This document shows, piece after piece, positions 4,043-57,829 of a DNA stretch of 64,000 bases. Each line of letters starts with the position of its first letter. The first letter of the stretch is position 1. The notes beneath the pieces are model-generated. The model ran no database searches and was not told the DNA's origin. It worked only from the letters and a program-made list of their open reading frames with translations. Source of the stretch: a virus (Duplodnaviria; Caudoviricetes); IMG/VR virus record IMGVR_UViG_3300031784_000002; one strand, 5' to 3'. The translations under genes and the position numbers were made by a program.

Positions 4043-5738
4043 GTGGCGTAATTTTCTTTCTACTGGAAATCAGTTTACAGAAGTAGATTTTCAAGACGCT
4101 AAGACAAATTTGATTGTCGGTACTAATGGTTCCGGTAAGAGTACGATTTTGGATGCTCTTACCTTTGTTTTGTATAACAAACCATTCCGAAAAATCAACA
4201 AACCTCAACTCATTAATTCTGTTAATGAGAAAGATTGTCTGGTGGAGATTGAATTCTCTATCGGAAATAAGGAGTATAAAGTTGTCCGAGGTATCAAACC
4301 AAATATTTTTGAGATATGGATTGATGGTAAAGTTCAGGACCAAGATTCTGCAGCCCAAGATCAACAAAAGAAACTTGAAGAAGGTATTCTGAAACTTAAC
4401 TATAAGTCATTTACTCAGACGGTCATTCTGGGATCGGCTACATTTGTTCCATTCATGCAGTTGACCTCTTCTAATCGTAGAGAGATTGTGGAAGATCTTC
4501 TTGATATTAAGATTTTTTCTACGATGAACAACATCCTAAAAGATAGGATGCGTAGAACAAATGAACTCATTCGTGAATATTCAATCAAGAAAGATATGAT
4601 TGAAGATAAAATTGAGATGCAAGAAAGTTTTATTAAGGATCTTGATAAGAGTGGAAAGGATCGTATTCAGAAAAAGAGAGATAGTATTCAAACCATTGAA
4701 AATGAAATTGATGAATTGAATACTGATAATGAATCTACTTTGGTCATGATTGAAACGGAACTTCAACCAAAGTTAGAAGAACTTAACAATACTAACTCAA
4801 CTCTGAAAAAACTCAGTACCATCAAGGCAAAACTGGAACAAAAGATACAACTTTTAGTATCTGATCATAAGTTTTTCCAAGAAAATTCGGTTTGCCCCAC
4901 ATGCACTCAAAGTATTGAAAATGAATTTCGCTTAAATAAGATTGCCGATATCGAGGAGAAATCCAAAGAACTCAATGACGGATACCGAGAGTTGGAGGAT
5001 GCAATCAATGTAGAACAGGAAAAAGACAAACAATTTTTATCTTATTCTACGGAGATCAACAGACTCAACAATGACATTTCCCACAACAATGTTAAAATTA
5101 CTGGGCTTAACAAACAAATCCGAAATCTTGGACATGAAATTCAAGAAATTACCGAACAAATTCAAAATCGAAATACTGAACGTCAAGCCCTTGAAAACTT
5201 AATACAAGATCTTGAAACATTAGAAAAAGAAAGATCTGCAGAAAAGGAACAAGTTAATTATTACGAGTTCGCTCATTCATTGATGAAAGATGGTGGAGTA
5301 AAGTCCAAGATCATCAAAAAGTATCTGCCTCTTATGAATCAGCAGATAAACAAGTATTTACAGATGATGGATTTTTACATCAACTTCACATTGGATGAGG
5401 AGTTTAAGGAGGTTATCAAGTCACCAGTTCATGAAGATTTTAGTTATGAGTCATTTAGTGAAGGTGAGAAGATGCGTATTGACCTTTCTCTTTTGTTTAC
5501 CTGGCGGGACATTGCCAAACTTAGAAACTCGGCCAGTACAAATCTTCTCATCTTAGATGAAATCTTTGATAGTTCTTTGGATGGTGCAGGAACAGACTTC
5601 TTCACAAATATTGTTCGTTATGTAATTCAGGACGCTCATGTGTTCGTTATCTCACACAAGACCGACGATCTCATGGACAAATTTGACAGGGTGATGAAAT
5701 TTGATAAAGTAAAAGGGTTCAGTAAACTAGTGTCATGA
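4020..5738 (+). CDS. gp46: Recombination endonuclease subunit gp46 (Rad50/SbcC-like)
   Basis: GTNGSGKST Walker A, coiled coils, CPTC zinc hook, FSEGEK signature, LILDE Walker B, VISH. Confidence 0.95.
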   Translation: MILFKTIKWRNFLSTGNQFTEVDFQDAKTNLIVGTNGSGKSTILDALTFVLYNKPFRKINKPQLINSVNEKDCLVEIEFSIGNKEYKVVRGIKPNIFEIWIDGKVQDQDSAAQDQQKKLEEGILKLNYKSFTQTVILGSATFVPFMQLTSSNRREIVEDLLDIKIFSTMNNILKDRMRRTNELIREYSIKKDMIEDKIEMQESFIKDLDKSGKDRIQKKRDSIQTIENEIDELNTDNESTLVMIETELQPKLEELNNTNSTLKKLSTIKAKLEQKIQLLVSDHKFFQENSVCPTCTQSIENEFRLNKIADIEEKSKELNDGYRELEDAINVEQEKDKQFLSYSTEINRLNNDISHNNVKITGLNKQIRNLGHEIQEITEQIQNRNTERQALENLIQDLETLEKERSAEKEQVNYYEFAHSLMKDGGVKSKIIKKYLPLMNQQINKYLQMMDFYINFTLDEEFKEVIKSPVHEDFSYESFSEGEKMRIDLSLLFTWRDIAKLRNSASTNLLILDEIFDSSLDGAGTDFFTNIVRYVIQDAHVFVISHKTDDLMDKFDRVMKFDKVKGFSKLVS

Positions 5739-8163: not shown

Positions 8164-9699
8164 ATGAACTCTAACGATTTTCAAAACCTAACTGAAGCTT
8201 ATAATCAAGTACATCAACTTGATGAAGTGTTAGACACTCCTGAAAAAGCGAATGAATATGCCAAAAAGAATGTAAAATCTATGGTTGGTGCTTTTGTTAA
8301 AGGTGCTGTTAACAAAGATATTAGTCAACTGAAAACCATAGAAAAAAGAAAAAGAGGAGCGGAACTGGGAAAAAGAAAGGCAGAAAGAAAGTCAGCAGAG
8401 GAAAAGAATGAAGAGTTTGAAACTTGGGTAAATGAACTTATGGAAGAGGGTTATGATCTCTCCGACTATACTTGGGAAGAGATGCATGAGTTCTATCTAG
8501 ATGAAGCAGAAGGTTCATACGGTGAAACTCCAAAGGCATACAGTGCAGCATCAAAGACCAAGATGACTGCAAAGAGAAAGCCTTTCCTCAAGAAAATGCT
8601 CAGAAGAACTAATCCTGCAGAAAGAAAGTCTGAGACTTCTCCAAGAAAAGGAATGACTGCTTCTGATAGGGAAGAAGCAAGAGCAGGTGATGCACATGGT
8701 TCACCTAGGGGTCATGATTACCCTTCACAGGGCCCTGGTGGAGTAACTAAGAATCCTAAGAAACTCCGTAAGCAAAAAGCAATGGGAGAGTTTGCTAAAG
8801 AAGAACTTGATGTCTTTGATGTAGTCCTTGAGTTCCTCCAAGTAGAAGGATACGCAGAAACTCTGGAAGAGGCAGAGTGGATGATGGCAAATGAACTAGA
8901 TGAGGAAACCATTGATGCAATCCTTGAAGCAGAAGGTTCTTACGGTAAGACACCCAAGGCAAGAGCAGCAATGGGTAAACTTGCTATTGCAAGACGTGAG
9001 AAACCTGCAAGTGAGTATTCGCAGAAAGGTGAGAAAACTAAAAAAGTAAAATCAATCGAAAAGCATACTCAGAGAATTGATAACGGTCCTGATGTAGGAA
9101 ATCGTGGTAAGAAATCTACTAAACCAAGATGGTCTGGGATGTTAGGCAAATCTGGTAGGGGTAAACTTGACCAAGATAGTAGAGATTATGCAAGAGATAG
9201 TGCTGTTGAGTATACTTCTGGCGGACACAAACCTGGTTCTGGTACTGTAACCAAGAACCCCAAGAAACTCCGTAAGCAAAAGGCTATGGGTGAGATTGGC
9301 GAAAGTTTTGACACATATGAATTTGTTTTGTGTCATCTTCTAGATGAGGGATATGCTTCAACCGAAGAAGCCGCAGATAAAATCATTCTCAACATGAGTG
9401 AAGCTTGGTTTGAAGATATTATGGAATTGAATCGTGTTGAAAAGGAAACTGGTATCAACACTAAAACTGGTAGACCAACTGCCAAAGGTGGCGCTAAGGA
9501 TGATAAAGCATATACTAGCGTAAAAAGAATGATGCGTAAAATGGAGGGAACTCCTGCGGGCCAAAGAAAAAAAGAACCAGGTAAAAAGCCACCTAAAGCT
9601 GGTGAATATGGCGGTCCAAGATCACCCGAACAAAAAGTTGCAAAACTCCGTGCAGACAAAAAACGCAGTGCAGATATGATGAGTTCTCGATTTGACTGA
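8164..9699 (+). CDS. Modular, internally repetitive late protein; candidate head internal (poly)protein
   Basis: Repeats EAEGSYG.TPKA (x2), KNPKKLRKQKAMGE (x2) and acidic L..EGY...EEA modules (x3). TAAATA lies upstream. Confidence 0.7.
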   Translation: MNSNDFQNLTEAYNQVHQLDEVLDTPEKANEYAKKNVKSMVGAFVKGAVNKDISQLKTIEKRKRGAELGKRKAERKSAEEKNEEFETWVNELMEEGYDLSDYTWEEMHEFYLDEAEGSYGETPKAYSAASKTKMTAKRKPFLKKMLRRTNPAERKSETSPRKGMTASDREEARAGDAHGSPRGHDYPSQGPGGVTKNPKKLRKQKAMGEFAKEELDVFDVVLEFLQVEGYAETLEEAEWMMANELDEETIDAILEAEGSYGKTPKARAAMGKLAIARREKPASEYSQKGEKTKKVKSIEKHTQRIDNGPDVGNRGKKSTKPRWSGMLGKSGRGKLDQDSRDYARDSAVEYTSGGHKPGSGTVTKNPKKLRKQKAMGEIGESFDTYEFVLCHLLDEGYASTEEAADKIILNMSEAWFEDIMELNRVEKETGINTKTGRPTAKGGAKDDKAYTSVKRMMRKMEGTPAGQRKKEPGKKPPKAGEYGGPRSPEQKVAKLRADKKRSADMMSSRFD

Positions 9700-41091: not shown

Positions 41092-41658
41092 ATGTCTACT
41101 CAAACCAAAATTCCGAGGGTAGTTTCAGAAGAACTACCCTCAAATCCTTTTACATTTGAAGTTCTTGCTCTTGCAGCAAAACAGAAATCAAATACAAAAA
41201 AGTCAGAAATTCTCCAAAAATATTCTGATCCATCACTCAAAACAATTTTAATTTGGAACTTTGATGAAACGATTGTTTCTCTTCTTCCAGAAGGATTAGT
41301 TCCTTATTCAAGTGTAGGTCAACAAAATGTGAGTTCTGGAAATTTAAGTGATAACATCCAGAGATCTGTTGAAATGATGAGTGACTTAGGTTCTAATTCT
41401 ATTGGATCTCAGGATCAGGGTAGGACTTCTATCAGAAAAGAATATACTTACTTTTATAATTTTGTAAAAGGTGGAAATGATCGTCTTTCAAGTATGAAGA
41501 GAGAGACTATGTTTATTAGTATTCTTGAAGGTCTTCATCCTCTTGAGGCTGAAATTCTTATGCTTGTTAAGGATAAGAAACTTCAAACTAAGTATAATAT
41601 TTCTAAAGAAAATGTCTCGGCTGCCTATTCGGATATCCAATGGGGTGGGAGATCATAA
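41092..41658 (+). CDS. Conserved T4-like cyanophage hypothetical protein
   Basis: LIWNFDE...LPEG.VPY...KRETMFISILEGLHPLEAEIL...WGGRS pattern. TAAATA at 41057. Confidence 0.7.
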   Translation: MSTQTKIPRVVSEELPSNPFTFEVLALAAKQKSNTKKSEILQKYSDPSLKTILIWNFDETIVSLLPEGLVPYSSVGQQNVSSGNLSDNIQRSVEMMSDLGSNSIGSQDQGRTSIRKEYTYFYNFVKGGNDRLSSMKRETMFISILEGLHPLEAEILMLVKDKKLQTKYNISKENVSAAYSDIQWGGRS

Positions 41659-41687: not shown

Positions 41688-44600
41688 ATGGCCAGACAGG
41701 GTATTAATACGGGAACAAGTCCTAATGATGGATTGGGTGATTCCCTGTTAACTGGTGCTATTAAAATAAACTCAAATTTTTCTGAGATTTATAATACTTT
41801 TGGAGATGGGAATAACCTAGTGAGTTACTCAAACTCTTCGGGTATATCAACGTATTCAAACATTTCTGGCGTATCCACATATTCAATTACTTCAGGTATT
41901 GCAACTTACTCCCCAACTTCTGGAGTAAGTACTTATGCATCTATTGCAGGATATTCTACATCTTCCGGAATATCTACAGTTTCACAAGGACTTACAGGAA
42001 CACCTAATCTCAATGTTGGTGTTGTAACTGCAACTTCCTATATCGGATCAGGATCAAATCTAACAGGAGTCATAACATCATTAGTTGCAGGATCCAACGT
42101 TACAATTACTCAGTCATCTGGAATTGCAACAATAAGTGCTTCTGGAAGTGGTGGAGGTGGATCTGGAGATTATTCTATAATTGCTGGATATTCAACATCT
42201 TCTGGAATTTCTACCGTCGCACAAGGACTTACCGGAACTCCAAGTATTAATGTGTACAATGTGGGAGTTGCTTCTGCGATTAATGTTGGTGCAGCCTCAA
42301 CATTCCAAAAATCTGTTCATTTCGAAAGTACTCTATTGATCGGAGATACTGATGAATTGCAGATTTTTCATGACGGAAATAATAGTTATATCGATAATTC
42401 AAGTGTAGGTAACTTAATAATCCGAGATAGTGGTACTGGAATCCAATTAAAGAAGACTTCTGGTGCTTTGATGGGAGTCTTCAATAATGATGCTGGAGTT
42501 GAGTTATATTATAACGGAGTATTAAAATTCCAAACTTTCCAGAACGGAGTCGCAATTAATGAATCTGTAGGTATTGGAAGCACTGCAGGTAACCCACCAT
42601 ACAGACTTACAGTGAGTGGTGTGGGTGCAACTATTACTCAAGGTCTTGCGAATGCAATTGCTGATTTTACTTCTAGTGTTAATGGGTATGGTCAGGTAAA
42701 TGTAAGAAACTCATTATCTGGTGCAAATGCTTCTGGTGATATTGTTGTAACTGCAAATAGTGGCACAGACACATCTAATTTTATTGATCTTGGTATTAAT
42801 AACGCAGGATTTACCACAACTAGTTGGACAATTAATGGTGCATTAGATGGATACTTATATACCTCTGATGGGAACCTATCAATAGGTGCAGCGTCTGCAA
42901 GTAAATATCTTTCTTTATTTGCTGGTGGAACTTTAGCCGCAAATGAACAAGTAAGAGTAACTTCTACAGGTGTTGGTATAGGCACCACAAATCCAACTAG
43001 TAAATTAACAGTTACTGGTGATGTTAATATTACTGGTGTCGTCACCGCAACATCATTCTCTGGTTCTGGTTCTGGATTAACCAATATTCCATCAGGTCAA
43101 TTAACAGGAGCACTTCCTGCGATTGATGGTAGTGCTCTTACTGGTATTGTTGCGAGTAGTACTGGTGTTAATATTAGGGATGATGGGTCTTCAGTAGGAA
43201 CAGCAACAACTATTGATTTTGGAGCAAACTTAAGTGTAAGTTTTGCTTCTGGTACTGCTACTATTACTGGATCTAGTGGTGGTGGATCTCAAACTCTTGA
43301 TACTACATTAGGTCTTGGAAATACTTCTTCACTTGGAATGAGTGTTGGTGTAGTGACTGCTACAGAATTCATAGGTGGTGGAAGTGATTTAAGAAACCTA
43401 CCAGGAACTCATTTAGTATCCTATGCTTCTCATAGTGAAACTTCTAATTCTGCTTTAAGTATTGCTGGTAGTTCATTTAATCAGGTAGGAATTCTTACTG
43501 GTTCTCTTGCGAGTGCTTCTGGTGATAACTTTGGATATTCAGTAGCAACAAGTGCCGATGGTAAGACGATTATTGTTGGTGCTTATAATGATGAGCAAAC
43601 AGGTTCTGGTGATAGTTCTGGTGTTGTTTATGTCTATGACCGTATAGGTAGTTCATTTAATCAGGTAGGAATTCTTACTGGTTCTCTTGCGGTTAATTCT
43701 TTTGATTACTTTGGATGGTCAGTAGCAACAAGTGCCGATGGTAAGACGATTATTGTTGGTGCTTATGGTGATGAGCAAACAGGTTCTGGTGATGCTTCTG
43801 GTGTTGTTTATGTCTTTGACCGTGTAGGAAACTCATTTAATCAGGTAGGAATTTTAACTGGTTCTCTTGCGAGTGATGATGATGATAGATTTGGATATTC
43901 AGTAACAACAAGTGCCGATGGTAAGACGATTGTTGTTGGTGCTAGTCGGGATGAACAAACAGGTTCTGGTTCTGCAGCTGGTGTTGTTTATGTCTTTGAC
44001 CGTATAGGAAACTCATTCAATCAAGTAGGAATTCTTACTGGTTCTCTTGCGGTTGATGCTTCTGATAACTTTGGATGGTCAGTAGCAACAAGTGCCGATG
44101 GTAAGACGATTGTTGTTGGTGTTTTGTTTGATGAACAAGCAGGTTCTGGTGCTAGTTCTGGTGTTGTTTATGTCTATGACCGTGTAGGAAACTCATTCAA
44201 TCAGGTAGGAATTCTTACTGGTTCTCTTGCTGTTAATTCTGGTGATTTCTTTGGATATTCAGTAGCAACAAGTGCCGATGGTAAGACGATTGTTGTTGGT
44301 GCTAGATCTGATGAAATAGGTGCTACTACTGGAACTGGTGTTGTTTATGTCTATGACCGTGTAGGAAACTCATTCAATCAGGTAGGAATTCTTACTGGTT
44401 CTCTTGCTGTTGATTCTGATGATTGGTTTGGATATTCAGTAGCAACAAGTGCCGATGGTAAAACGATTGTTGTTAATGCTTATCAAGATGAACAAACAGG
44501 TTCTGGTGCTAGTTCTGGTGTTGTTTATATTTTTAAAAGACAAGGAAACTCATTTAATCAAGTAGGAATTCTTACTGGTTCTCTTGCGGTTGATGCTTCT

Positions 44601-44966
44601 GATAACTTTGGAAGATCAGTAGCAATAAGTGCCGATGGTAAGACGATTATTGTTGGTGCTAGTTCTGATGAAATAGGTGCTACTACTGGAACTGGTGTTG
44701 TTTATGTCTTTGATGAAACCAGAAATACTTATGTACATTCTGGACCCACTGGTAATATCGGTATAGGAACCACAAATGCAACATCAAAACTTACTATAGG
44801 TGGTGATGTGATTATTACAGGAATTACTACAGTAGGACTTGCAAATACATCGACTCCACCAAGTAATTCTCAAATGAGTTTTGAACTAACAAGTAACACA
44901 AACTTAAGAATCAAAGTTCGTGGTACAGATGGTGTGTTGAGATCTGCAAACATTACACTTGCATAA
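41688..44966 (+). CDS. Tail-fibre/receptor-binding-like protein with a 7-repeat FG-GAP beta-propeller
   Basis: N-terminal MARQGINTGT..NDG.GD.L..GA.KINSNF.EIY virion-attachment-like motif, S/G/T-rich fibre modules and seven repeats (FG.SVA.S.DG.TI.VGA...G.VYVY). ATAAATA at 41655. Confidence 0.8.
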   Translation: MARQGINTGTSPNDGLGDSLLTGAIKINSNFSEIYNTFGDGNNLVSYSNSSGISTYSNISGVSTYSITSGIATYSPTSGVSTYASIAGYSTSSGISTVSQGLTGTPNLNVGVVTATSYIGSGSNLTGVITSLVAGSNVTITQSSGIATISASGSGGGGSGDYSIIAGYSTSSGISTVAQGLTGTPSINVYNVGVASAINVGAASTFQKSVHFESTLLIGDTDELQIFHDGNNSYIDNSSVGNLIIRDSGTGIQLKKTSGALMGVFNNDAGVELYYNGVLKFQTFQNGVAINESVGIGSTAGNPPYRLTVSGVGATITQGLANAIADFTSSVNGYGQVNVRNSLSGANASGDIVVTANSGTDTSNFIDLGINNAGFTTTSWTINGALDGYLYTSDGNLSIGAASASKYLSLFAGGTLAANEQVRVTSTGVGIGTTNPTSKLTVTGDVNITGVVTATSFSGSGSGLTNIPSGQLTGALPAIDGSALTGIVASSTGVNIRDDGSSVGTATTIDFGANLSVSFASGTATITGSSGGGSQTLDTTLGLGNTSSLGMSVGVVTATEFIGGGSDLRNLPGTHLVSYASHSETSNSALSIAGSSFNQVGILTGSLASASGDNFGYSVATSADGKTIIVGAYNDEQTGSGDSSGVVYVYDRIGSSFNQVGILTGSLAVNSFDYFGWSVATSADGKTIIVGAYGDEQTGSGDASGVVYVFDRVGNSFNQVGILTGSLASDDDDRFGYSVTTSADGKTIVVGASRDEQTGSGSAAGVVYVFDRIGNSFNQVGILTGSLAVDASDNFGWSVATSADGKTIVVGVLFDEQAGSGASSGVVYVYDRVGNSFNQVGILTGSLAVNSGDFFGYSVATSADGKTIVVGARSDEIGATTGTGVVYVYDRVGNSFNQVGILTGSLAVDSDDWFGYSVATSADGKTIVVNAYQDEQTGSGASSGVVYIFKRQGNSFNQVGILTGSLAVDASDNFGRSVAISADGKTIIVGASSDEIGATTGTGVVYVFDETRNTYVHSGPTGNIGIGTTNATSKLTIGGDVIITGITTVGLANTSTPPSNSQMSFELTSNTNLRIKVRGTDGVLRSANITLA
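43467..44720 (+). repeat. Seven near-identical coding repeats of about 180 bp
   Basis: gttctcttgc recurs at 43501, 43681, 43861, 44041, 44221, 44398 and 44578. Confidence 0.92.
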
Positions 44967-45000: not shown

Positions 45001-45672
45001 ATGACCCTAGATCTTCATAACTTTTTTAAGTTTTATGATGAGAAGAACGCCAACCATGTTGCAGCCGTTCAGTGGTTGGAAGATAAACTTCCAGAAAAAT
45101 TCCTAGACGATGCAGAAACTGATTGGATTGGTATTTTTAGAACTAAGCCACCAACTCCAGAAGTTCTTGCAGTTCCATACTTTAACCAAGTAGACAACTA
45201 CAGAGATGCACATAGAACTTGCAACAGTTCATCGTGTGCTATGTGCCTCGCTTTCCTCAAGCCAGGTAGCATCAAAGGCGATGACGAATACGTTAAGAAA
45301 GTATTTGCGATTGGCGATACTACAGACCATGCGGTACAAACGAAGGTACTTGCAGGTTATGGAGTTAAGTCACACTTTAGTTACAATCTTTCTTTTGTTG
45401 ACGTTGATAAAAGTCTCGATGCTGGCAAACCTGTTGTTATTGGTATCCTGCATCGCGGTTCTCTTTCTGCACCTACTGGTGGGCACATGTGTGTTGTAAT
45501 CGGTAAGACACCAGACGGTAAAGGATACTATGTAAATGATCCATATGGTTCGTTGAACGATAACTATACTGGTCCAGTTACAAATGGTAAGAAGACCATT
45601 TACACCAAAGCAGTTCTTAAGCATCGCTGGTGCCCAGGTGGCAACGATGGTTGGGGTCGTATTTTTGACTGA
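45001..45672 (+). CDS. C39-like cysteine peptidase (putative endolysin/amidase)
   Basis: Q...TCNSSSCAM nucleophile, GHMCVVIG histidine and VNDPYG aspartate. TAAATA at 44970. Confidence 0.75.
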   Translation: MTLDLHNFFKFYDEKNANHVAAVQWLEDKLPEKFLDDAETDWIGIFRTKPPTPEVLAVPYFNQVDNYRDAHRTCNSSSCAMCLAFLKPGSIKGDDEYVKKVFAIGDTTDHAVQTKVLAGYGVKSHFSYNLSFVDVDKSLDAGKPVVIGILHRGSLSAPTGGHMCVVIGKTPDGKGYYVNDPYGSLNDNYTGPVTNGKKTIYTKAVLKHRWCPGGNDGWGRIFD

Positions 45673-45690: not shown

Positions 45691-46362
45691 ATGGCAAGAG
45701 TAGATTTACACAACTTCTTTCAATTCTATGATGAAAGAAATCCTAATCATGTTAAAGCAGTACAGTGGTTAGAGGACAACCTTCCAGTTGAATATCTTGG
45801 TGATAACGTAGAGTGGGCTGACATTTATCGCGGAAAAAAGACTAGTGCTGCACCAGCATCTGTTCCCGCTGTTGCAGCTCCCGTAACTGGTGGCGATGAT
45901 ATGCCTATGATGGGCATCAAACTCATTAAAGAGTTTGAAGGATGTCATTTAAAAGCATATCCAGATCCTCTGACTGGTGGACTTCCAATCACAATTGGTT
46001 GGGGATCCACCCGTAAGAAAGATGGGTCGCCATTTAAAATGGGAGATACTTTGACCCAACAGGAAGCAGATGAACTTTTAATTGAACAATGTAAGAGAGA
46101 GTTTCTTCCTGCACTTCGTAAAATCCCACATTGGAATGAAATGTCAGATGGAAAAAGAGGCGCTCTGCTCAGCTTTGCTTATAATCTTGGTGCCGGTTTT
46201 TACGGTGGCGATAACTTTAATACTATTACTAAACGCCTGAAAAATAAGGAGTGGGACTTAGTTCCAGATGCTCTTTATCTCTACCGCAATCCTGGTTCTA
46301 ATGTTGAAGCAGGTCTTGCACGTAGAAGAAAATCAGAAGGTGAAGCCTGGAAAAAGGGATAA
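45691..46362 (+). CDS. GH24 lysozyme (endolysin)
   Basis: LIKEFEG...AYPDP...ITIGWGST, ALLSFAYNLG and GLARRRKSE motifs. Confidence 0.9.
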   Translation: MARVDLHNFFQFYDERNPNHVKAVQWLEDNLPVEYLGDNVEWADIYRGKKTSAAPASVPAVAAPVTGGDDMPMMGIKLIKEFEGCHLKAYPDPLTGGLPITIGWGSTRKKDGSPFKMGDTLTQQEADELLIEQCKREFLPALRKIPHWNEMSDGKRGALLSFAYNLGAGFYGGDNFNTITKRLKNKEWDLVPDALYLYRNPGSNVEAGLARRRKSEGEAWKKG

Positions 46363-46505
46363 ATAGTTACAATCATAACTGATTCTTGATCTTAACTGGT
46401 CTGAATCTACATAACCCAAGTCCTCTGTGACTTGGTGAATACTTTACTTTTAAACAACTTCGGTTTGTTTTTGTTTAGTACACACTAAGTAATAGAGGAC
46501 TTTCT
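46359..46505 (+). promoter_or_regulatory. Late promoter plus a long structured 5' leader
   Basis: ATAAATA at 46359. Hairpins at 46381-46407, 46416-46435 and 46452-46470 (cUUCGg). Anti-SD complementarity 46418-46428 to 46492-46502. Confidence 0.55.
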
Positions 46506-48575
46506 ATGTCTTACGCTACAAGGGCGCTTGCTGTAGCGTCTGCTCTTTTGATGGGAGCACCAACAGCATTCGCAGATACAATTTCTGGTACAGATTTTGA
46601 GACTGGAAATACTTCAGGATGGAATACTGGAACTCAAACGGGAACCTTAGATAGTACTATCACTGGAGGAGGAACTGGTGTTAGTGTTGTTGATAATCCA
46701 GTTATCTTCAATGCTGGTTCTTTTCCTGCAGTAGGGAGTCCAACGTTACAAGACGGTTCTCCTAACCCATACCATGCACCTGCAGTAACCCCAACCACTT
46801 GGGAGTTTGCTCCTTATGGAACTGCTGGTGCTGCACTACAACCGAACGGTCAACAAACATTTAACCAAGCAACAGAATCACTTGGTTTAACACCAGAACA
46901 AAATCAAGCAATAAGAGACCTTCTTACTCAACAACAACAAGCATCAGGTCTTGGAAATCCAAACCCCACTGATGCTTCTTGGATTACAAAATCAGTCACT
47001 TTGGAAACTGGAAAAGTTTATACGATGTCTTGGAATTATATTGGAACTGACTATGTTCCTTTCAATGATGGTTCTATTACTTCACTTGTTTATCAAGGTG
47101 CAGGTTCATCCCCGTCAGTAACAGTTAATAACCAACTTCAAAACTATGCATTGCTTGGATTTACTAATCCGGGAACAGGTGATTATTCAACAGGTTCTTT
47201 TGGTTCTACTGGATGGCAGTATTCAACTTATCAAGTAGGTGCTGATGGTGACTATCTCTTAGGATTTGCAGTGTTTAACCTTGGAGATACTGCACTATCA
47301 CCAGTTCTTTTAGTTGATAGTCAACCTGGAACTGCAACAGCAAATGGTCAATCATTTACTCCTGTTGCACCAAACAATCCAGATGCTCCCTCTGTTGATG
47401 AGGTAGCACCAACTCCAACTCCAACACCTGAACCGGAACCTACTCCAGAACCAGAACCTACACCAGAGCCAACTCCTGAACCTACTCCAGAACCAGAACC
47501 TACACCAGAGCCAACTCCTGAACCTACACCAGAGCCAACTCCTGAACCGCAACCACAACCACCAACACTATTAAACTCTGTGACTGTTCCCGCACCAGGA
47601 CTTCCAGTTGTTGTTACTACTGAGGTAACTCATAATGTATCTGAAGAGGATGGATCTCAAAAGATTAGAAGAGACTTTGCAACTACGACTCAAACTCCAT
47701 TATTGAAACAAGATACTTATAGTGATGGAACAGTTGTAACATCATTACTTCTTTCCGTTGATACTGAAAATACTAACGATGTCCTTTCTGGTCGTGTAGA
47801 TCAACACGAAGTTATGGATGCGATGGGTGAAGGATTGCAAGGTCTTCTGAATCACGAACCATCCGAACCAACCACTGATAGAGTCCGAGTATTCAGTAAG
47901 AACTATTATGCGTGGTCTTCTGCGGATAACGGATACTCTGCTAAGTCATTCATCTATGGTGGTGGTATTGAGATTGATATTAAACCAACCTGGACGATTG
48001 GTGCTCAATATAATAATGTAAATGTAAACTTGGATGGTGTCGATAGTACTTCTAAACTGAATAAAAGTCATATTGGAGTTTTTAATATGCTTCGTGGAAA
48101 TACATTTTCACTCTTAACTAATGCTGCGATTGTTCGGAATAAATATAATGTTTCCAGAACTGTTCAGGGTGTCTTTAATAACGAAAGTTCCACAACAGGA
48201 CAAGAGTGGTGGGTGAATAACAGACTCTTCTGGCACGCACATAAGAATATCACTCCATTTGTAGGTCACACTACTAGAAACTATGGTAGAGACGCTTTCA
48301 TTGAGAGTGGATCTATTCAGTCTACAAGAAGTGTTGATGCGATAAATGAAACTTATCATACTGGTGAAATTGGACTTGTTCTTTCTCATCGTTTCGGTGG
48401 TAAGAAACAGGATCTTTTTGGAGTCAGTGTAGAAGGTTCTTATGCGACTGATAACTCTGTTGAGGTTGCTGCTTCTGTTGACTATAAGGAAATGGTATTC
48501 ATCGAAGGAGTTCATCAGATTGCCAATGGTGCTTCCAATACATCCGTTGCTGCAAAGTTCAAATTTAGGTTCTAA
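46506..48575 (+). CDS. Autotransporter-like outer-membrane protein (signal peptide, passenger, PEPT linker, beta-barrel)
   Basis: Sec signal ending in AFA, a beta-rich passenger, a (PEPT)n linker, amphipathic strands and a terminal KFKFRF (aromatic C-terminus typical of BAM substrates). Confidence 0.7.
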   Translation: MSYATRALAVASALLMGAPTAFADTISGTDFETGNTSGWNTGTQTGTLDSTITGGGTGVSVVDNPVIFNAGSFPAVGSPTLQDGSPNPYHAPAVTPTTWEFAPYGTAGAALQPNGQQTFNQATESLGLTPEQNQAIRDLLTQQQQASGLGNPNPTDASWITKSVTLETGKVYTMSWNYIGTDYVPFNDGSITSLVYQGAGSSPSVTVNNQLQNYALLGFTNPGTGDYSTGSFGSTGWQYSTYQVGADGDYLLGFAVFNLGDTALSPVLLVDSQPGTATANGQSFTPVAPNNPDAPSVDEVAPTPTPTPEPEPTPEPEPTPEPTPEPTPEPEPTPEPTPEPTPEPTPEPQPQPPTLLNSVTVPAPGLPVVVTTEVTHNVSEEDGSQKIRRDFATTTQTPLLKQDTYSDGTVVTSLLLSVDTENTNDVLSGRVDQHEVMDAMGEGLQGLLNHEPSEPTTDRVRVFSKNYYAWSSADNGYSAKSFIYGGGIEIDIKPTWTIGAQYNNVNVNLDGVDSTSKLNKSHIGVFNMLRGNTFSLLTNAAIVRNKYNVSRTVQGVFNNESSTTGQEWWVNNRLFWHAHKNITPFVGHTTRNYGRDAFIESGSIQSTRSVDAINETYHTGEIGLVLSHRFGGKKQDLFGVSVEGSYATDNSVEVAASVDYKEMVFIEGVHQIANGASNTSVAAKFKFRF
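47410..47565 (+). repeat. Pro/Glu/Thr coding tandem repeat
   Basis: Recurring cctactccagaaccagaa, cctacaccagag and ccaactcctgaa units. Confidence 0.85.
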
Positions 48576-48609
48576 TTTATAAATAAAAAGGACATCATCA
48601 CACGGACTG

Positions 48610-50664: not shown

Positions 50665-51387
50665 ATGAATTATCTAGATAAAGTATATAATTTGGATTGG
50701 AAAAAATATAACGATCTTGTTTATAACTCAATATCTTTTAAATATTTTCCAAAAGAAGAATTTGAAATTGAGACTATAACACCTGTAGATATTCTTTATG
50801 AATTGGAAGAAGAAAAAATAATTTATATACCAATTTCAAAAAATGCTTCTACATCAATTACAAATTCTTTAAACTTTAGACCAGTAACTACTTTTGTGCC
50901 CCCAAATTCTAAATTTTATCTAGATTATATAGATATCCCCGAAAAGTATAGAAGTGGTTATAAGTTTTTAGTCATTACTAGAGATCCGCAAAAAAGGTGG
51001 ATTTCTGGAATAAATGAATTTTTGAATGAAAGGCCAGATTTTGATGAGGATGATATAAAATCCTATGATAAATTTATCATAGAACTAAAAAATAATAAAT
51101 TTATATTTGACTGCCATACTAGACCGCAATTTTCATGGATAGATTTTTGTTTTAGATATGATCTTGATATAACTTTTTTAAAACTTGATGAAAATTTGAA
51201 TGAAAAAATATCAAACATATTGGGAAGACAAGTCACAATAAATCACTATAATCCTATTCAAAAGTATGAATCAAAAATAAAAAATTATAAATTTTGTTAT
51301 GATATTTTAACTAAGTATTGTATGAAAAATAAAAATTTTTTAAATTTACATGAGATGGATTTTTATCTCTATAATAATTCTCTTTAA
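50665..51387 (+). CDS. Sulfotransferase family 2-like protein
   Basis: YIPISKNASTSI (5'-PSB-like), RDPQKRWISG (3'-PB-like) and HTRPQ motifs. Confidence 0.75.
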   Translation: MNYLDKVYNLDWKKYNDLVYNSISFKYFPKEEFEIETITPVDILYELEEEKIIYIPISKNASTSITNSLNFRPVTTFVPPNSKFYLDYIDIPEKYRSGYKFLVITRDPQKRWISGINEFLNERPDFDEDDIKSYDKFIIELKNNKFIFDCHTRPQFSWIDFCFRYDLDITFLKLDENLNEKISNILGRQVTINHYNPIQKYESKIKNYKFCYDILTKYCMKNKNFLNLHEMDFYLYNNSL

Positions 51388-51392
51388 TAATT

Positions 51393-51968
51393 GTGTATTT
51401 ACCTAATAGAATATTTTTTACTGGAGTTCCTGGATCCCGTTGGAGTGGTATCGCACAGACGTTAGAAACGATGTCTGGTATGAATACCTCTGACCGCACA
51501 CCTGAGCGTGAATACGTTCATCATAGTTATACTGGACACAGAGGAGCGTATTTTGGACCTGGTATGGAGTTTGAACCAATTCTTGATCCAGATTATATTG
51601 ATCAGGCATGGATTGAACCTCAGGGATGCAAACTTATTAAAAGTCATGAATGGTCTTATTATCTAGATCAAATACAAAAGAAGTTTCCTAATGATCGGAT
51701 ATTAATGGTATATCGTCCAGATATGGTTAGTTATGCTTGGTGGCATGAAGCTGGAGGATTTCAAATTCAATATCCAAATTATAGTGCATATAAAAACAGT
51801 GGCACAATGTTAAGTGAGATCATGAAACAAAATTCTTGTATGTTAGAATTTGGGATGTTAAATAAATGTAAGTGGGAATACTTTACATCTGAATGGATAT
51901 ACAATAATTTTGGACAAAGTATTGTAGTTAATAAAACATTTTCGGACATCTTGGTTACATTGATATGA
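51393..51968 (+). CDS. P-loop/sulfotransferase-like hypothetical protein
   Basis: IFFTGVPGSRWS loop, KLIKSH and LMVYR. Confidence 0.6.
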   Translation: MYLPNRIFFTGVPGSRWSGIAQTLETMSGMNTSDRTPEREYVHHSYTGHRGAYFGPGMEFEPILDPDYIDQAWIEPQGCKLIKSHEWSYYLDQIQKKFPNDRILMVYRPDMVSYAWWHEAGGFQIQYPNYSAYKNSGTMLSEIMKQNSCMLEFGMLNKCKWEYFTSEWIYNNFGQSIVVNKTFSDILVTLI

Positions 51969-52927
51969 CTAATAACAATATTTTAATTGGACATTTGGGT
52001 TGGGATGGATGTCATTTTTTGGGAGCTTGTCTCACTATGAGTGACAAAGTGTATTTTAATAATTGTACTCTTCGCGGCAAAGTGGAGTATTATCATAAAA
52101 ATATGTCTGACATTAGTTGGGTAAACGGTGAACCCATCTGGTCAGATGTTTTTATGTTTTATGGTACTTCCTATGAGACAGATGGACATATTCATTATCG
52201 ACATGCATGGTGTAATGATCCCAATCATCACCCTGAACAGTTTTCATCGGATTATGGATTAAAACAAAAAATTAGAATATCTAGATTACACGTACCCGTA
52301 TATTATCCATTAAAAGAAATGTTGGAAAAAAATATTTCACATCCAATGATGGACATGTTTAAGTGCAAATATTTTATTTGTTTAATGAATACAAGTCTTT
52401 TTTGTACACTAAGATCTATAAAAGTTGAACATGATGATAACGTTGGTGTTAGTTGGGATAATGGACATGCTCCAATTCCAGATATGAAATGGTTTTCTGG
52501 GCCATTAACAGAAATAGATAAGTTAACAAATTCGTTAACTGTTAGTGGATTTCAAAAATTATCAGAAGAATCACAAAAAAGAATTAAAGATCATCACAAT
52601 AAAAACTTAGATCATTTGTTTAATCTAACTAAATTAAACAAATCGGATAATGATTTATTAAAGACAATGATTACACATCAGTGGGATTGTAATTGGTTCT
52701 TAAATGAAGATGAAACTATTAACGGTCTTAAAGTTTTATATTCTGAGATGAAATTAGGCAAATTAAATGAAAATTTAATACGTAAAATGTATAGAATTTG
52801 GATTAACAAAATAGATTTCATTAAAAATTGGTATGTATTGAATGGATTTTCTAATGATGATGTGGAAGTAGTAAAAGTTAAATCTACAGATATGACTCCA
52901 ATAAACCAGGAAATGTTTATGAAATAA
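51965..52927 (+). CDS. Hypothetical protein, possibly sulfotransferase-like
   Basis: N-terminal ILIGHLGWDGCHFL loop; otherwise unassigned. Confidence 0.5.
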   Translation: MTNNNILIGHLGWDGCHFLGACLTMSDKVYFNNCTLRGKVEYYHKNMSDISWVNGEPIWSDVFMFYGTSYETDGHIHYRHAWCNDPNHHPEQFSSDYGLKQKIRISRLHVPVYYPLKEMLEKNISHPMMDMFKCKYFICLMNTSLFCTLRSIKVEHDDNVGVSWDNGHAPIPDMKWFSGPLTEIDKLTNSLTVSGFQKLSEESQKRIKDHHNKNLDHLFNLTKLNKSDNDLLKTMITHQWDCNWFLNEDETINGLKVLYSEMKLGKLNENLIRKMYRIWINKIDFIKNWYVLNGFSNDDVEVVKVKSTDMTPINQEMFMK

Positions 52928-52976
52928 AAATATTATAGTTTTTACAAAAAGAGTTTAAGTCTTTGTAAATACCAAA

Positions 52977-52984
52977 TATAAATA
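52977..52984 (+). promoter_or_regulatory. Late promoter TATAAATA
   Basis: Exact T4 late consensus, 16 nt before the ATG at 53001. Confidence 0.7.
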
Positions 52985-53000
52985 ATTGCAAGTATATAAC

Positions 53001-53675
53001 ATGAATAAAATGTTAACAGGAAAAGAATTCGTAAATAAAATTAAAAAAGATAACGCTGAACTTTTTGAACAATCTCGTTTGAATGTTCGTCGTTTCTTTG
53101 ATTCAAATCCAAGTAAAGAACATATGGTCAATCATTTCCGTGGTCGTATGGTAAACGAAGCAATGAACATGAAGGCAATCGCTGCTGAGGTTGCTTCTGC
53201 TCCTGCATCTATGGATGTTACCGAACTTGAATTATTAACAAAACAAGCACAAGATGAAGCAAAACACTTCCGTATGGTTAAGGAAGTAATTGAACATATC
53301 TCTGGTGAGAAGGTAGATGTTGATGCTGCTTTCGCTGCAGAAGCTGCATCGCCCCAGGCTAAGGGTGCCACTCTCCTAGATAAGTATGAAGCATCATCTG
53401 ACCCCGCTGCTCTTGCTGCATACCAACTCGTCGCTGAGGGTCGTGCAGAGGCAGTATGGAACGAAATGGCTGAGTGTGTAGAAGATGAGTTTATTTCTTC
53501 TCGTTACGCTGCTATTGCTAAAGACGAAGGTTTCCATGCCAACATTGGTGGTTGGAAACTTGAAAAACTTGTAGAAGGTGCTGCAGAAGTTCAAGAACGT
53601 ATTTTAGAAATGGTAGATCAAATGCGTGTTGATCTTCTTGAAATTAGCAATAAAAATACTGCCATTGCTGTCTGA
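53001..53675 (+). CDS. Ferritin-like diiron-carboxylate protein
   Basis: Ligand pattern E (VNE), DEAKH, E (AEG), DEGFH on a four-helix bundle. Confidence 0.85.
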   Translation: MNKMLTGKEFVNKIKKDNAELFEQSRLNVRRFFDSNPSKEHMVNHFRGRMVNEAMNMKAIAAEVASAPASMDVTELELLTKQAQDEAKHFRMVKEVIEHISGEKVDVDAAFAAEAASPQAKGATLLDKYEASSDPAALAAYQLVAEGRAEAVWNEMAECVEDEFISSRYAAIAKDEGFHANIGGWKLEKLVEGAAEVQERILEMVDQMRVDLLEISNKNTAIAV

Positions 53676-53691
53676 TAATTAATAATATATT

Positions 53692-53946
53692 ATGAGTACT
53701 CTTGAAACAAGGCGCCGCAAAGATAAAACTCGTGTAATCAAATGGGTTAGTGCTTGTACAATACTCATCGCAATGGTGTTTCATGTACTGGGACTAACCC
53801 CTTGGAATAGCATCCTACAACTAATCGGAGCATCTGGTTGGACTTATGTGGGATTTAAGTGGAAAGAACGTTCAATTATAATGAACTTCCTTCCACAATT
53901 TTTTATTATCATACCAGGATTAATTTATTTGTTATTTCTAAAATGA
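53692..53946 (+). CDS. Small multi-TM membrane protein
   Basis: Three hydrophobic segments in 84 aa. Confidence 0.65.
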   Translation: MSTLETRRRKDKTRVIKWVSACTILIAMVFHVLGLTPWNSILQLIGASGWTYVGFKWKERSIIMNFLPQFFIIIPGLIYLLFLK

Positions 53947-54563
53947 AAAAAATGGTAATTCTTACTGGACCACAAGGGTCTGGTAATCATCTTTGGTCTA
54001 AAATATTTTCACTTCATCCTGAAGTATTCGGGTGGAAGACTTTACTTGAAAACTATTGGGAAGCACATAGATTTGCTGAACCATTTTGTGAGTATTGGAA
54101 AGATCCTTCAAGACTCAAAGATTTTGATTGGTCTACTCACGACTATTTTTTTACAAGTATTAGTGTTCCTCTCGGTATCCAAGAGAAAAAGTGGGAACCA
54201 AATATTATGTTATTTGCCAATGAAGTCAAAAAACTTGGCATCGAAGCTCAAATATTGGTAATTGGTAGAGATCAAAACATTCTTAGACATCAGCAAAATC
54301 GTCTTAGAAAAGAAAATACCTTGACTCTGTTCATGAATCAACTGCCTACATTTACTAATCCAATCTTCTTAAGTTATGAATTGTTATATCTTTATAAACA
54401 AGAGTATTTAAAAAGTTTAGATCTCAACATTCCAATTGCTTGGGATGATTCTAGGGTAGATAAAATTTTGTCCAATGACCCTAATGATAAATACGTCCAT
54501 CATGTGGAAGAATATTTCTTAGATAATTGCAACAAAACTGGCATACCTCTTAAGTCATTATGA
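53943..54563 (+). CDS. P-loop (sulfotransferase/kinase-like) protein, paralogue 1
   Basis: MVILTGPQGSGNHLWSKIF and IGRDQNIL. Confidence 0.65.
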   Translation: MKKMVILTGPQGSGNHLWSKIFSLHPEVFGWKTLLENYWEAHRFAEPFCEYWKDPSRLKDFDWSTHDYFFTSISVPLGIQEKKWEPNIMLFANEVKKLGIEAQILVIGRDQNILRHQQNRLRKENTLTLFMNQLPTFTNPIFLSYELLYLYKQEYLKSLDLNIPIAWDDSRVDKILSNDPNDKYVHHVEEYFLDNCNKTGIPLKSL

Positions 54564-55216
54564 AGAAACTAGTAATTATTACAGGTCCACAAGGATCTGG
54601 TAATCATTTTTTTAGTAGAGTTTTTAGTACTCACCCCAAAGTGGGTGGATGGAAATCTCTTTTAGATAAGTATTGGGTTCCAAGTGATGAAGAATATTTT
54701 GCTAAGTATTGGGTAAATCCGGAGGAACTATCGGAGAATGATTTTAGGGGATATGACTATTGGTTGGCAAATGTAAGTTGCCCATTTTATTATGATGGAG
54801 TAAGATATATTCCAAAGGTTCGAGAATTTGCAGAAAAAGCCCAGTCTTTAGGAATTGATGTTCAAATTTGTATAATTGTACGAGACCAAAACATCAATTC
54901 AGAACAACAAAAAAGAGTACGTGGTGAGGTAACTTTGCCAATCGCAATGCATTACTATCAAAATAACATAATTGGAAAAAATTTTAAAGTTCATTTTTTA
55001 GATAATGAAGCATTTTTCCTTCACAAACAATATTATTTAAAGTGGATAAGTGAACTACTAGATTTTCCCATTGACTATAATAATCCCGATATTTTCAAAT
55101 TCATTACTGAAGATCCCAATAAAAAATATATTAAATATGTTAGTGAACATTGGTTAGATAAATCAGTATGGGATGGCATTAAGCCAAAAACAGATAGAAA
55201 CATCAAAATGGTATGA
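54560..55216 (+). CDS. P-loop (sulfotransferase/kinase-like) protein, paralogue 2
   Basis: LVIITGPQGSGNHFFSRVF and IVRDQNIN; alignable to paralogue 1 by eye. Confidence 0.65.
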   Translation: MKKLVIITGPQGSGNHFFSRVFSTHPKVGGWKSLLDKYWVPSDEEYFAKYWVNPEELSENDFRGYDYWLANVSCPFYYDGVRYIPKVREFAEKAQSLGIDVQICIIVRDQNINSEQQKRVRGEVTLPIAMHYYQNNIIGKNFKVHFLDNEAFFLHKQYYLKWISELLDFPIDYNNPDIFKFITEDPNKKYIKYVSEHWLDKSVWDGIKPKTDRNIKMV

Positions 55217-56601
55217 TTGATATGAACAAGACTTTTTGCATGGCTCCATGGACTCACATGAACATTGGTCCTAACGGAGATGTTTATCCATGTTGTATGA
55301 TGCCTATAACTGGCACAGAAGGAATTCCTGATGAAAAGAAAAAAGAACCTCCTATAATTGTTGATACAGATAATCTAGATGATGAGTATGATCTGGATGG
55401 TTTGAAAGAACTTATTGGCAGTATGCAAGAAATTGCTGAGCCAATAAATCCTTTGGAAATTGTTGCTACTGAATGTGAAGGGACTCCAAGAGATTTTAAA
55501 ATGGGTTCTCTCCTAGATGAATCACTAAAAGACATCTGGAACGGTGAGAAGATGAGAGAACTTCGTAGAAACATGATAGCAGGTGAAAAGTGCAGTTATT
55601 GTACATCATGTTATAAAGAGGAAGAAATCGGTCATGGATCTCTAAGACTTCACATGAATAAGACGTATGCAAAACATTATGACTACGTTAAAGAAACTAA
55701 AGAAGACGGAACCTTTGATAGATTCAATCTGGTCTACTGGGATTTCAGATTAAATAATATCTGCAACTTTAAATGTAGAATGTGTAGTCCTGGGTACAGT
55801 AGTGCTTGGGAACAAGAGATGAGAAAAGAATTCAATATTGAAGGTGAGTATCCCAAAATTGATGTAGATATGGTGCATCAAGATATCGAACCTCTCTACG
55901 ATATTGTAGAAGAAGTTTATTTTGCTGGAGGTGAACCTCTAATTTCAGATCACCATTACAAGATTCTACGCAAATTAATTCAGAAAAAGAGAAACACTGT
56001 CGTTAGATTGTCATACAATACCAACTTCAGTACACTAAAATATAAGAACAATAATGTTCTAGACCTATGGAAAAAATTTCCGAATCTTTCTTTATCTGTA
56101 AGCTTTGATGGTACAGAAAAAAGAGGAGAACTAATTCGAAAAGGATTCGATTGGCAAAAGTTTCTGGATAATTTTAGATTGTTTAGAAGTAAGTTTCCCC
56201 ATACAAGCGTAAAGATCAACTACGTTTTCCAGGCTTTGAATTGTTTTCATGCCATGGATGCTCATAGAGAACTTTATTTAAGAGGAATTATTACTGACTG
56301 GAATGACTTCTCTTTGTGCATCTTACATAATCCGGATTATATGTCGGTTCTAATTCTTGATTCCGAATCAAGGAGATTGTTGGGCCAAAAGATTAAATAT
56401 CATATTGAAAATTATCTTGCTCCAGCAAAAGCTCATGAGTCCATTAAACAATACATTTCTGTTCTCAAACTTTTGTCTGAAGAGAAGAGAGATCATCTAG
56501 TTCCATACTTCAAATCTTATATGTCTGCACTAGATTCCATAAGAAACGAAAATTCTCTAGAAATTTTTCCTGAACTAGAAAGGATTTTGAGCGATGATTG
56601 A
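55213..56601 (+). CDS. Radical SAM protein with an N-terminal SPASM/Twitch domain
   Basis: CMAPW...GDVYPCC, C.YC..C, the radical SAM motif CNFKCRMC and FAGGEP. Confidence 0.9.
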   Translation: MIDMNKTFCMAPWTHMNIGPNGDVYPCCMMPITGTEGIPDEKKKEPPIIVDTDNLDDEYDLDGLKELIGSMQEIAEPINPLEIVATECEGTPRDFKMGSLLDESLKDIWNGEKMRELRRNMIAGEKCSYCTSCYKEEEIGHGSLRLHMNKTYAKHYDYVKETKEDGTFDRFNLVYWDFRLNNICNFKCRMCSPGYSSAWEQEMRKEFNIEGEYPKIDVDMVHQDIEPLYDIVEEVYFAGGEPLISDHHYKILRKLIQKKRNTVVRLSYNTNFSTLKYKNNNVLDLWKKFPNLSLSVSFDGTEKRGELIRKGFDWQKFLDNFRLFRSKFPHTSVKINYVFQALNCFHAMDAHRELYLRGIITDWNDFSLCILHNPDYMSVLILDSESRRLLGQKIKYHIENYLAPAKAHESIKQYISVLKLLSEEKRDHLVPYFKSYMSALDSIRNENSLEIFPELERILSDD

Positions 56602-57829
56602 TAAGAAAAAAATTAAAACAAAGGGTGAAGTTTTTTGTATAGCCCCTTGGTTAGCTCTAGACATTCGACAAGATGGTGAAGTTAAACCATGTTGTGTTTC
56701 TGAGTATACTTATGGGGATATTAAAGAAAAGCCTTTATGGGAAATCTGGAATGATGAGCCAATAAGAAAACTCCGCGAGAATATGATTAATGAAATACCT
56801 AGCGAAAGTTGTCAGGTATGTTATAATAATCAAGCTGCAGGAAAAAGTTCCTTAAGACAAGATCTCATTAATAATTTGTTCTATGAAAATAGAAAGTTAG
56901 TATATGGTACAAATGATGATTACACTGTTAATGAACCTGGATTTGTTTGGTGGGACTTAAAACTCAGCAACAAATGCAATTTCAAATGTAGAATGTGTAG
57001 TTGGACCTCAAGCTCTACTTTTGAATTAGAACAAAATGGTGTAATCTCTGGTAGATGGAACGCATCTGAAAAAACTTATGAAGAGACTGAACCCTACCTT
57101 AATATGGTAAAACACCTATATTTTTCTGGAGGTGAATCTTTAATTATAGATGAACATTGGAAAATACTTGATAAACTAATTGAGTTAGGTAGAAATGATA
57201 AAGTTACTTTAGCTTACAATAGTAACTTTAGTAATCTTGTTTATAAAGGTAGACACATTTTTGATATGTGGGATAAGTTCAACAAGAGTGTAGAAGTACA
57301 CATTAGCGTTGACGGTATTGGATCAAGAGGTGAGTTAATCCGAAAAGGATTCAATTGGGATAGATTTGTATCTCATGCGGAGCAGTTCAGAGAAAGATTC
57401 AAAAATAAACCAATTACACATGAATTGCATTTTGATTGTACAGTCCAAGCGTTAAACATTTTTGAAGTAGTTAAGTTGCATCAATATTTGTATAATAGTG
57501 GACTGATGAAGGATATAGATTTTTTCTTCTTAAACTTTATGCAATATCCAAGAGAAATGTCCGTTTGGATTTTAGATAAAAAAACAAAGGAAACAGCAAA
57601 AGAAAATATAAGAAATCATATTGACAATTTCTTAATTCCTAATGGTTCAAAAAGGTCTGTAATATTCTATGAAAGTCTGATAAAGTATATTGATTTATAT
57701 CAGGAACAACTTTTAATTCCAGAATTCTTGAAGTCAATGAGAAAATTTGACAAATTGAGGAATGAAAATGTAGTGGAAACTTTCCCAGAACTTCAAAGAA
57801 TATGGAACGTAATTAAAAAGAAAGCCTAG
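56594..57829 (+). CDS. Radical SAM protein with an N-terminal SPASM/Twitch domain, paralogue
   Basis: CIAPW...GEVKPCC, CQVC, CNFKCRMC and FSGGES. Confidence 0.9.
   Translation: MIDKKKIKTKGEVFCIAPWLALDIRQDGEVKPCCVSEYTYGDIKEKPLWEIWNDEPIRKLRENMINEIPSESCQVCYNNQAAGKSSLRQDLINNLFYENRKLVYGTNDDYTVNEPGFVWWDLKLSNKCNFKCRMCSWTSSSTFELEQNGVISGRWNASEKTYEETEPYLNMVKHLYFSGGESLIIDEHWKILDKLIELGRNDKVTLAYNSNFSNLVYKGRHIFDMWDKFNKSVEVHISVDGIGSRGELIRKGFNWDRFVSHAEQFRERFKNKPITHELHFDCTVQALNIFEVVKLHQYLYNSGLMKDIDFFFLNFMQYPREMSVWILDKKTKETAKENIRNHIDNFLIPNGSKRSVIFYESLIKYIDLYQEQLLIPEFLKSMRKFDKLRNENVVETFPELQRIWNVIKKKA

Follow-up and report, generated by a model that had tools for sequence, protein, structure and literature searches.

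A two-state leader RNA, possibly a self-closing translation gate, ahead of an autotransporter-like gene in a T4-like cyanophage

Genome setting of the leader

The window, by which we mean the whole 64,000-nt stretch of viral DNA analysed here, is part of a T4-like cyanophage and has nrdA- and nrdB-like genes, a C39 peptidase and a lysozyme aboard. A phage lysozyme gene (45691–46362; PF00959, E=8e-22) and the autotransporter-like gene (46506–48575) are separated by a leader; both genes and the leader elements described below are on the + strand. The stop codon of the lysozyme gene falls within ATAAATA (46359–46365), a T4-like late promoter motif. This motif agrees with the cyanomyophage late promoter, which is NATAAATA in S-PM2 (PMC2984593). 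ATAAATA occurs 15 times in the window, 14 of these on the + strand and mostly directly ahead of genes. The next copy (48579–48585) lies directly 3' of the autotransporter-like gene, and thus the genes downstream need not depend on the leader. The non-coding stretch after the late motif is 140 nt (46366–46505), as the initial annotation had put it, compared with about 20–45 nt for the other leaders that follow this motif in the window.

Some neighbouring genes are worth mentioning. The C39-like peptidase (45001–45672) and the adjoining lysozyme have a similar N-terminal segment of about 45 aa, and both match halves of phrog_3617, which suggests that the pair may be a split or duplicated endolysin module. 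Another late motif, at 41655, precedes the gene for a 1092-aa tail-fibre-like protein (41688–44966) with about seven FG-GAP-like repeats, recognised by eye, in its C-terminal half. A run of sulfotransferase-like, ferritin-like and radical-SAM/SPASM-like genes, likewise assigned by eye from the translations, extends over 50665–57829.

The autotransporter-like gene and its relatives

The gene downstream of the leader encodes 689 aa, of which the last 262 match PF03797 (44 bits against a cut-off of 26). The protein is laid out as a signal-peptide-like start (by eye), a swappable passenger, a stalk rich in Pro, Glu and Thr, and a C-terminal barrel with a terminal Phe. The passenger has weak matches to NF038132 and to choice-of-anchor-L/PEP-CTERM-like folds. 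Judged by its barrel, which is matched in 22 of 23 aligned members of the family, the product is a putative type Va-like autotransporter, and export to the host outer membrane is predicted.

Relatives are found in freshwater and estuarine viral contigs of T4-like cyanophage type. Among GenBank phages, the barrel is present only in Synechococcus phages DSL-LC02 and DSL-LC03, both metagenome-assembled with a predicted host, and it is absent from the GTDB bacterial genome contigs searched. Across homologues the gene is a mosaic: lineages have reshuffled leader type, barrel and passenger, the last of at least four kinds. In L418, L421 and L422 (starts 2760, 2611 and 2721), an intact-looking autotransporter gene follows a short, unstructured leader without a U-tract; the upstream gene differs, and the three form a single clade on the barrel tree. 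They provide a natural control without the switch.

Two mutually exclusive folds of the leader

The helices described in the initial annotation are all present at the stated positions. The segment 46418–46428 pairs with 46492–46502 over 11 bp with one G-U, covering the GAGGA SD (46495–46499), and it alternatively takes part in a CCAAGTC/GACTTGG hairpin at 46416–46435 (7 bp, 6-nt loop) that excludes the anti-SD pairing. The GATTC/GAATC hairpin at 46381–46407, referred to as P1, is also present; it consists of 5+4 bp with an internal loop and is common to both folds. The apex hairpin is found at 46452–46470 as proposed, although its closure by cUUCGg is marginal in the window and conservation of the loop is not strict.

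Further pairings extend this picture. Since 46430–46437 pairs with 46483–46490, and 46440–46443 with 46477–46480, the anti-SD helix is the base of one 85-nt rod (46418–46502). Its 5' arm (46418–46437) is composed of the anti-SD strand and the mid strand 46430–46437, and its 3' arm (46483–46502) of the mid strand 46483–46490 and the SD strand 46492–46502. The inner stem with the apex (46440–46480) is compatible with both folds and variable in length in homologues. In the closed fold, RNAalifold additionally pairs an anti-AUG strand, ACAUA (46409–46413), with 46505–46509 over 5 bp, closing the start codon. A U-rich spacer (46501–46505) from the rod to the AUG is partly paired when the leader is closed and is a possible terminator tail. 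The short local hairpin at 46416–46435 is the early, open state, in which the 5' arm of the rod is hidden.

The leader is the most structured among 43 start regions in the window, with a minimum free energy (MFE) of -46.5 kcal/mol against -25.7 +/- 3.7 for shuffles (z = -5.55, 0/200). The ~140 nt upstream of the starts at 8164, 36579, 234 and 26775 also beat shuffles, with z of -3.0 to -3.8 (30 shuffles each). The energy of the short hairpin is -9.4, compared with -4.1 +/- 2.0 in nulls retaining the long stem (p = 0.015), and under a looser null its p is 0.04. An Rfam 15 search of the window, with manA, wcaG, PhotoRC-II and glutamine riboswitches included, gives 0 gathering-score matches; at E-value thresholds matches are at chance level only (E>=0.6), and a class-2 leader, a type described below, likewise has none. 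The search that the initial annotation had called for, with manA and wcaG in mind, thus ends with no match at any threshold, and the leader RNA is in no Rfam family and is distinct from manA, wcaG and PhotoRC-II.

Conservation in homologous leaders

Protein- and pattern-based scans yielded 129 distinct leaders. A late-promoter motif lies upstream in 119 of them and a lysozyme-type 3' end in 108, and a long rod stem ends 1–8 nt before the AUG in 125. The remaining four comprise three short unstructured leaders of one clade and one with a mis-called start, which is recovered by the RNA model. The element is single-copy per genome and always stands ahead of the same autotransporter gene; no second copy is found in the window or in five related genomes, and the searches gave one weak match (G003, E=0.005). 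L063, from which the end of the lysozyme gene and the leader's 5' half are missing, L130 (~5645–5730), which jumps from the 3' arm of the rod to the coding region, and L045, whose leader is without a TAAATA motif, are natural deletions or assembly artefacts.

A first alignment (A3) comprised 57 class-1 leaders and was made blind to structure. In it, pairing amounts to 96.6% for the rod, 10 of whose 23 pairs show double changes, and to 98.7% for the short hairpin, where 2 of 7 pairs do. Both have covariation scores above all 500 shuffles and all slid controls. A second alignment (A6), of 29 more diverged leaders, has double changes at 28 of the 32 pairs in the closed fold and at 5 of the 7 in the short hairpin, counts that lean toward the rod because these leaders were aligned to the model; relatedness alone can also exceed shuffles. 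P1 is 96–99% paired in A3, with double changes at 7 of 9 pairs in A6. The anti-AUG helix is 97.7% paired in A3 and 93.8% in A6 with C-to-U changes only, a double change being impossible here because the AUG is fixed. The initial annotation had held that a lack of covariation would refute a switch; both exclusive folds covary.

Its term "anti-SD" holds for the window, where the SD is paired, but is too narrow for the family, since many homologues keep the rod without any SD. An SD-like word is missing in 28 of 91 representative leaders, so the conserved feature is the blocking of the start region rather than an anti-SD. The most telling evidence comes from several lineages in which the short hairpin is rebuilt from new sequence: as 10 bp with a 3–4-nt loop (L081, L146, L342, L348), as 8–9 bp with a 3-nt loop (L074, DSL-LC03), or capped by cUUCGg, with the tetraloop pairing to CGAA of the rod (L328, L386, L392). 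Whichever the leader class, the energy of the short hairpin lies mostly around -8 to -12 kcal/mol. Under the loose null, 7 of 24 leader clusters have p<=0.05 for the short hairpin (Fisher p=9e-5, with clusters that are not independent), and energy by itself is moderate evidence for this hairpin in diverged forms. A pseudoknot between the hairpin loop and the SD was considered instead of a switch and rejected, as the loop goes down to 3–4 nt and the 3' strand of the hairpin covaries with the 3' arm of the rod.

Another 23 leaders form a second class, which differs in sequence, has no SD and shares the layout of a first hairpin, a competing hairpin and a rod. The anti-AUG helix is absent from class 2, and the rod terminates at -7/-8. 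The class-1 covariance model finds none of these leaders; architecture and a short core are shared, and a common origin of the two classes is unproven. P1 is reduced or replaced in class-2 and in short leaders. In several class-2 leaders, among them L023, L054, L229 and L432, the core of the rod 5' arm recurs as an invariant repeat inside the first hairpin, just after TAAATA. A five-segment pairing relay is possible: transcripts from the late promoter would miss most of the 5' strand of the first hairpin, leaving the repeat free to capture the competing strand and hasten closure, while those reading through from upstream would keep the open fold. Prefix folding reproduces this relay for L229, not for L432 or L023.

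Collectively, it is very probable that this is a real, well-conserved two-state leader RNA with both folds under selection.

Order and energetics of folding

When transcript prefixes are folded in order, P1 appears first, then the short hairpin, and then the rod from about 46487–46490. The short hairpin is in the MFE structure of most prefixes ending at 46433–46484, and the switch to the rod precedes synthesis of the SD. The closed fold (-44.5 kcal/mol) is 21 kcal/mol more stable than the open fold (-23.2 kcal/mol). Opening of the 30S footprint costs 20.4 kcal/mol for this leader (mean 19.3 +/- 4.1 kcal/mol), compared with 7.0 +/- 3.1 kcal/mol at other genes of the window. When the footprint is held open, the leader falls back to the short hairpin.

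The short hairpin impedes closing in the model. In the window it raises the barrier from 0.5 to 4.1 kcal/mol, and the corresponding means over 19 leaders are 0.7 and 3.2; the barrier is almost nil in several class-2 leaders. Of 57 leaders, 50 have a G-U at one of the invading rod pairs, at a place where the displaced hairpin has C-G. Simulated closing is about 200-fold slower with the short hairpin (median ~6000 versus ~25 time units). Such folding simulations are usually calibrated at about 1e5–1e6 units per second, and the delay in absolute time is probably milliseconds to tens of milliseconds.

A self-closing translation gate as the preferred reading

As the gene would be off at equilibrium, the conserved alternative fold must act out of equilibrium or be held. 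Our preferred reading, to which we assign a probability of about 0.45, is that the leader is a cis-acting, kinetically controlled translation gate resembling that of MS2 maturation and working as a self-closing timer, not by sensing a chemical. The short hairpin would form first on late and read-through transcripts, hiding the 5' arm of the rod, and would delay the rod long enough for ribosomes to load on some of the new mRNAs. It might re-form behind each loaded ribosome, so that translation proceeds in a short burst. The mRNA would then collapse to the rod, which buries the ribosome-binding region, together with the AUG in the window type, and stay off. The outcome would be that the amount of an exported outer-membrane protein is kept low and capped, even though its gene follows a strong late promoter and a lysozyme gene, and such low dosing is presumably the purpose of the arrangement.

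We infer that the level of control is translation. The anti-AUG helix, which can matter only once the AUG is transcribed, points to this level and is counted toward the gate. Moreover, the apparently free exchange of leader types across barrel lineages, in which class 2 requires at least 11 changes on a quick version of the barrel tree, makes a specific ligand or protein less likely. The translation gate is weakest in that the modelled delay is probably shorter than ribosome loading needs, which is about 1 s until the start region is free. Also counting against it are the switch of the prefix MFE to the rod before the SD is made, the small share of leader clusters with a significant short hairpin under the loose null, and the near-absent barrier of several class-2 leaders.

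Alternative explanations

Transcription attenuation is the strongest rival, one we consider unlikely but worth serious weight. The rod with its U-tract would be an intrinsic terminator and the short hairpin an antiterminator; an abundant RNA of ~135 nt would accumulate, the lysozyme message would be ended there, and fractional read-through would supply the autotransporter gene. Several features fit. Of 91 leaders, 88 have five to seven U among the 8 nt that follow the final G-C pair, and the spacer is U-rich relative to the genes of the window (mean T at -7 to -1 of 4.9 in 91 leaders versus 2.4 in 56 window ORFs) and is missing in the three unstructured leaders, although the leaders are related and the enrichment does not represent 91 independent cases. 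Class-2 leaders, having neither SD nor anti-AUG helix and a rod ending at -7/-8, suit a terminator; a brief delay is enough for antitermination, and the genes downstream carry their own late motif. On the other hand, the U tails are interrupted (UUUCUAUG in the window), the stem is an 85-nt rod rather than a compact hairpin, and the U residues of class 1 are partly accounted for by the anti-AUG pairing, which would be pointless if transcription ended there. The terminator scan admitted loops of 3–8 nt only.

Next comes a switch that is off by default and opened by a trigger, namely a phage or host protein, a small RNA or RNase III-type cleavage, which would stabilise the short hairpin or cut the rod, and this too we think improbable. 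The 21-kcal/mol gap together with the low computed barrier suggests an extra holder of the open state, and the rod is a near-continuous helix of about 19+4 bp. A helix of this length is long enough for RNase III. Against a trigger, the loop sequences vary freely in both hairpins, unrelated-looking leader types swap on the same barrel lineages, and no antisense match longer than 11 nt is found within the window, nor a strong one (best E=0.07) or a second copy in five related genomes. More broadly, we see only a slim chance that a specific signal, either a small molecule or a factor from phage or host, and not folding speed alone, keeps the leader in its open fold.

The initial annotation had proposed a cis-regulatory RNA acting as a riboswitch, thermometer or protein-binding switch. 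Its two exclusive folds are well supported, but the riboswitch and thermometer mechanisms fare badly. A ligand-binding riboswitch, whose aptamer would be P1 plus the linker, would account for exclusive folds with an expression platform over the start region, and cyanophages do carry the candidates manA and wcaG (PMC2864571). It is nonetheless very unlikely. The 29 diverged leaders have 12 near-invariant columns, mostly the AUG and its complement; almost no unpaired base is invariant, and thus a conserved aptamer core is lacking. In addition, Rfam gave no match, P1 is not kept intact in short or class-2 leaders, and a single gene is served, unlike typical riboswitches.

Timing of the kind established for T4 e, soc, 49 and I-TevI (PMC3014915) deserves mention as the phage is T4-like: an internal start in the 5' arm would give a short translatable transcript, and longer ones would be blocked. 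This has very little chance of being right, because the sole late motif is upstream of the whole structure with none inside the rod, the scan finds no sigma70-like site in the leader, and the conserved short hairpin is left unaccounted for. Just as implausible is an RNA thermometer or a DNA-level feature, for which the paired SD and the two arms, inverted repeats with internal dyads, might be cited: the SD has an unpaired probability of <=0.002 from 10 to 65 C in the model, G-U pairs and the strand bias (the sense strand out-folds the antisense in 77 of 90 leaders) indicate RNA, and the sequence of the would-be operator dyads is not conserved. An invertible DNA segment is rejected, since the inner segment has a single orientation in all ~60 gene-oriented loci.

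Implications

Few natural examples of functional transient RNA folds are known. Here, more than 120 natural variants keep two exclusive folds while their sequence, the SD included, is replaced, and the family is a ready test set for models of co-transcriptional folding. The family also marks the dose or timing of a phage autotransporter as under strong selection in freshwater cyanophages. If a signal holds the open fold, the leader would be a phage-encoded sensing switch timing the display of a lytic cyanophage protein on the host surface, and if the class-2 relay is real, it could also read which promoter produced the transcript. No description of the leader was found in the papers searched; it may be among the 8,495 unnamed candidates in the automated IMG/VR set of PMC10690425.

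Comparison with known systems

The motifs manA (RF01745), wcaG (RF01761) and PhotoRC-II (RF01717) are, like this leader, structured putative 5' UTRs in T4-like cyanophages; they are mostly marine and stand before genes of metabolism or photosynthesis (PMC2864571), whereas the leader precedes one autotransporter gene. The hairpins of T4 e, soc, 49 and I-TevI (PMC3014915) share with it a T4-like phage, a nearby late promoter and an intramolecular helix that hides the SD and/or the AUG. However, the late promoter of T4 e and soc sits within the 5' strand and removes it (PMC3014915), while in the leader some 50 nt separate it from the rod downstream, and a conserved competing hairpin is present instead. 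Type I toxin mRNAs such as H. pylori aapA3 (PMC6733600) resemble it in that co-transcriptional hairpins yield to a stable long-range fold and a membrane-directed protein is under tight control. The transient hairpins of aapA3 block the SD (PMC6733600), whereas that of the leader frees it, and no antisense RNA has been found for the leader.

The closest parallel in operation is the 5' UTR of the MS2 maturation gene, in which the inhibitory strand is masked by a transient hairpin whose role is proven by mutation and rescue (PMC4615214). As in MS2, a stable long-range helix buries the SD, a metastable hairpin that forms earlier masks the complementary strand upstream, conservation extends to both folds, and the product is needed in low amount, which for the autotransporter-like gene is presumed. 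The likeness is one of working rather than of homology: MS2 has a cloverleaf of four arms where the leader is a simple rod, there is no sequence relation, the leader is carried on mRNA made by RNA polymerase from a dsDNA cyanomyophage, and its closed form covers the AUG as well. If true, the translation-gate reading would bring DNA phages within the range of the MS2-type folding gate.
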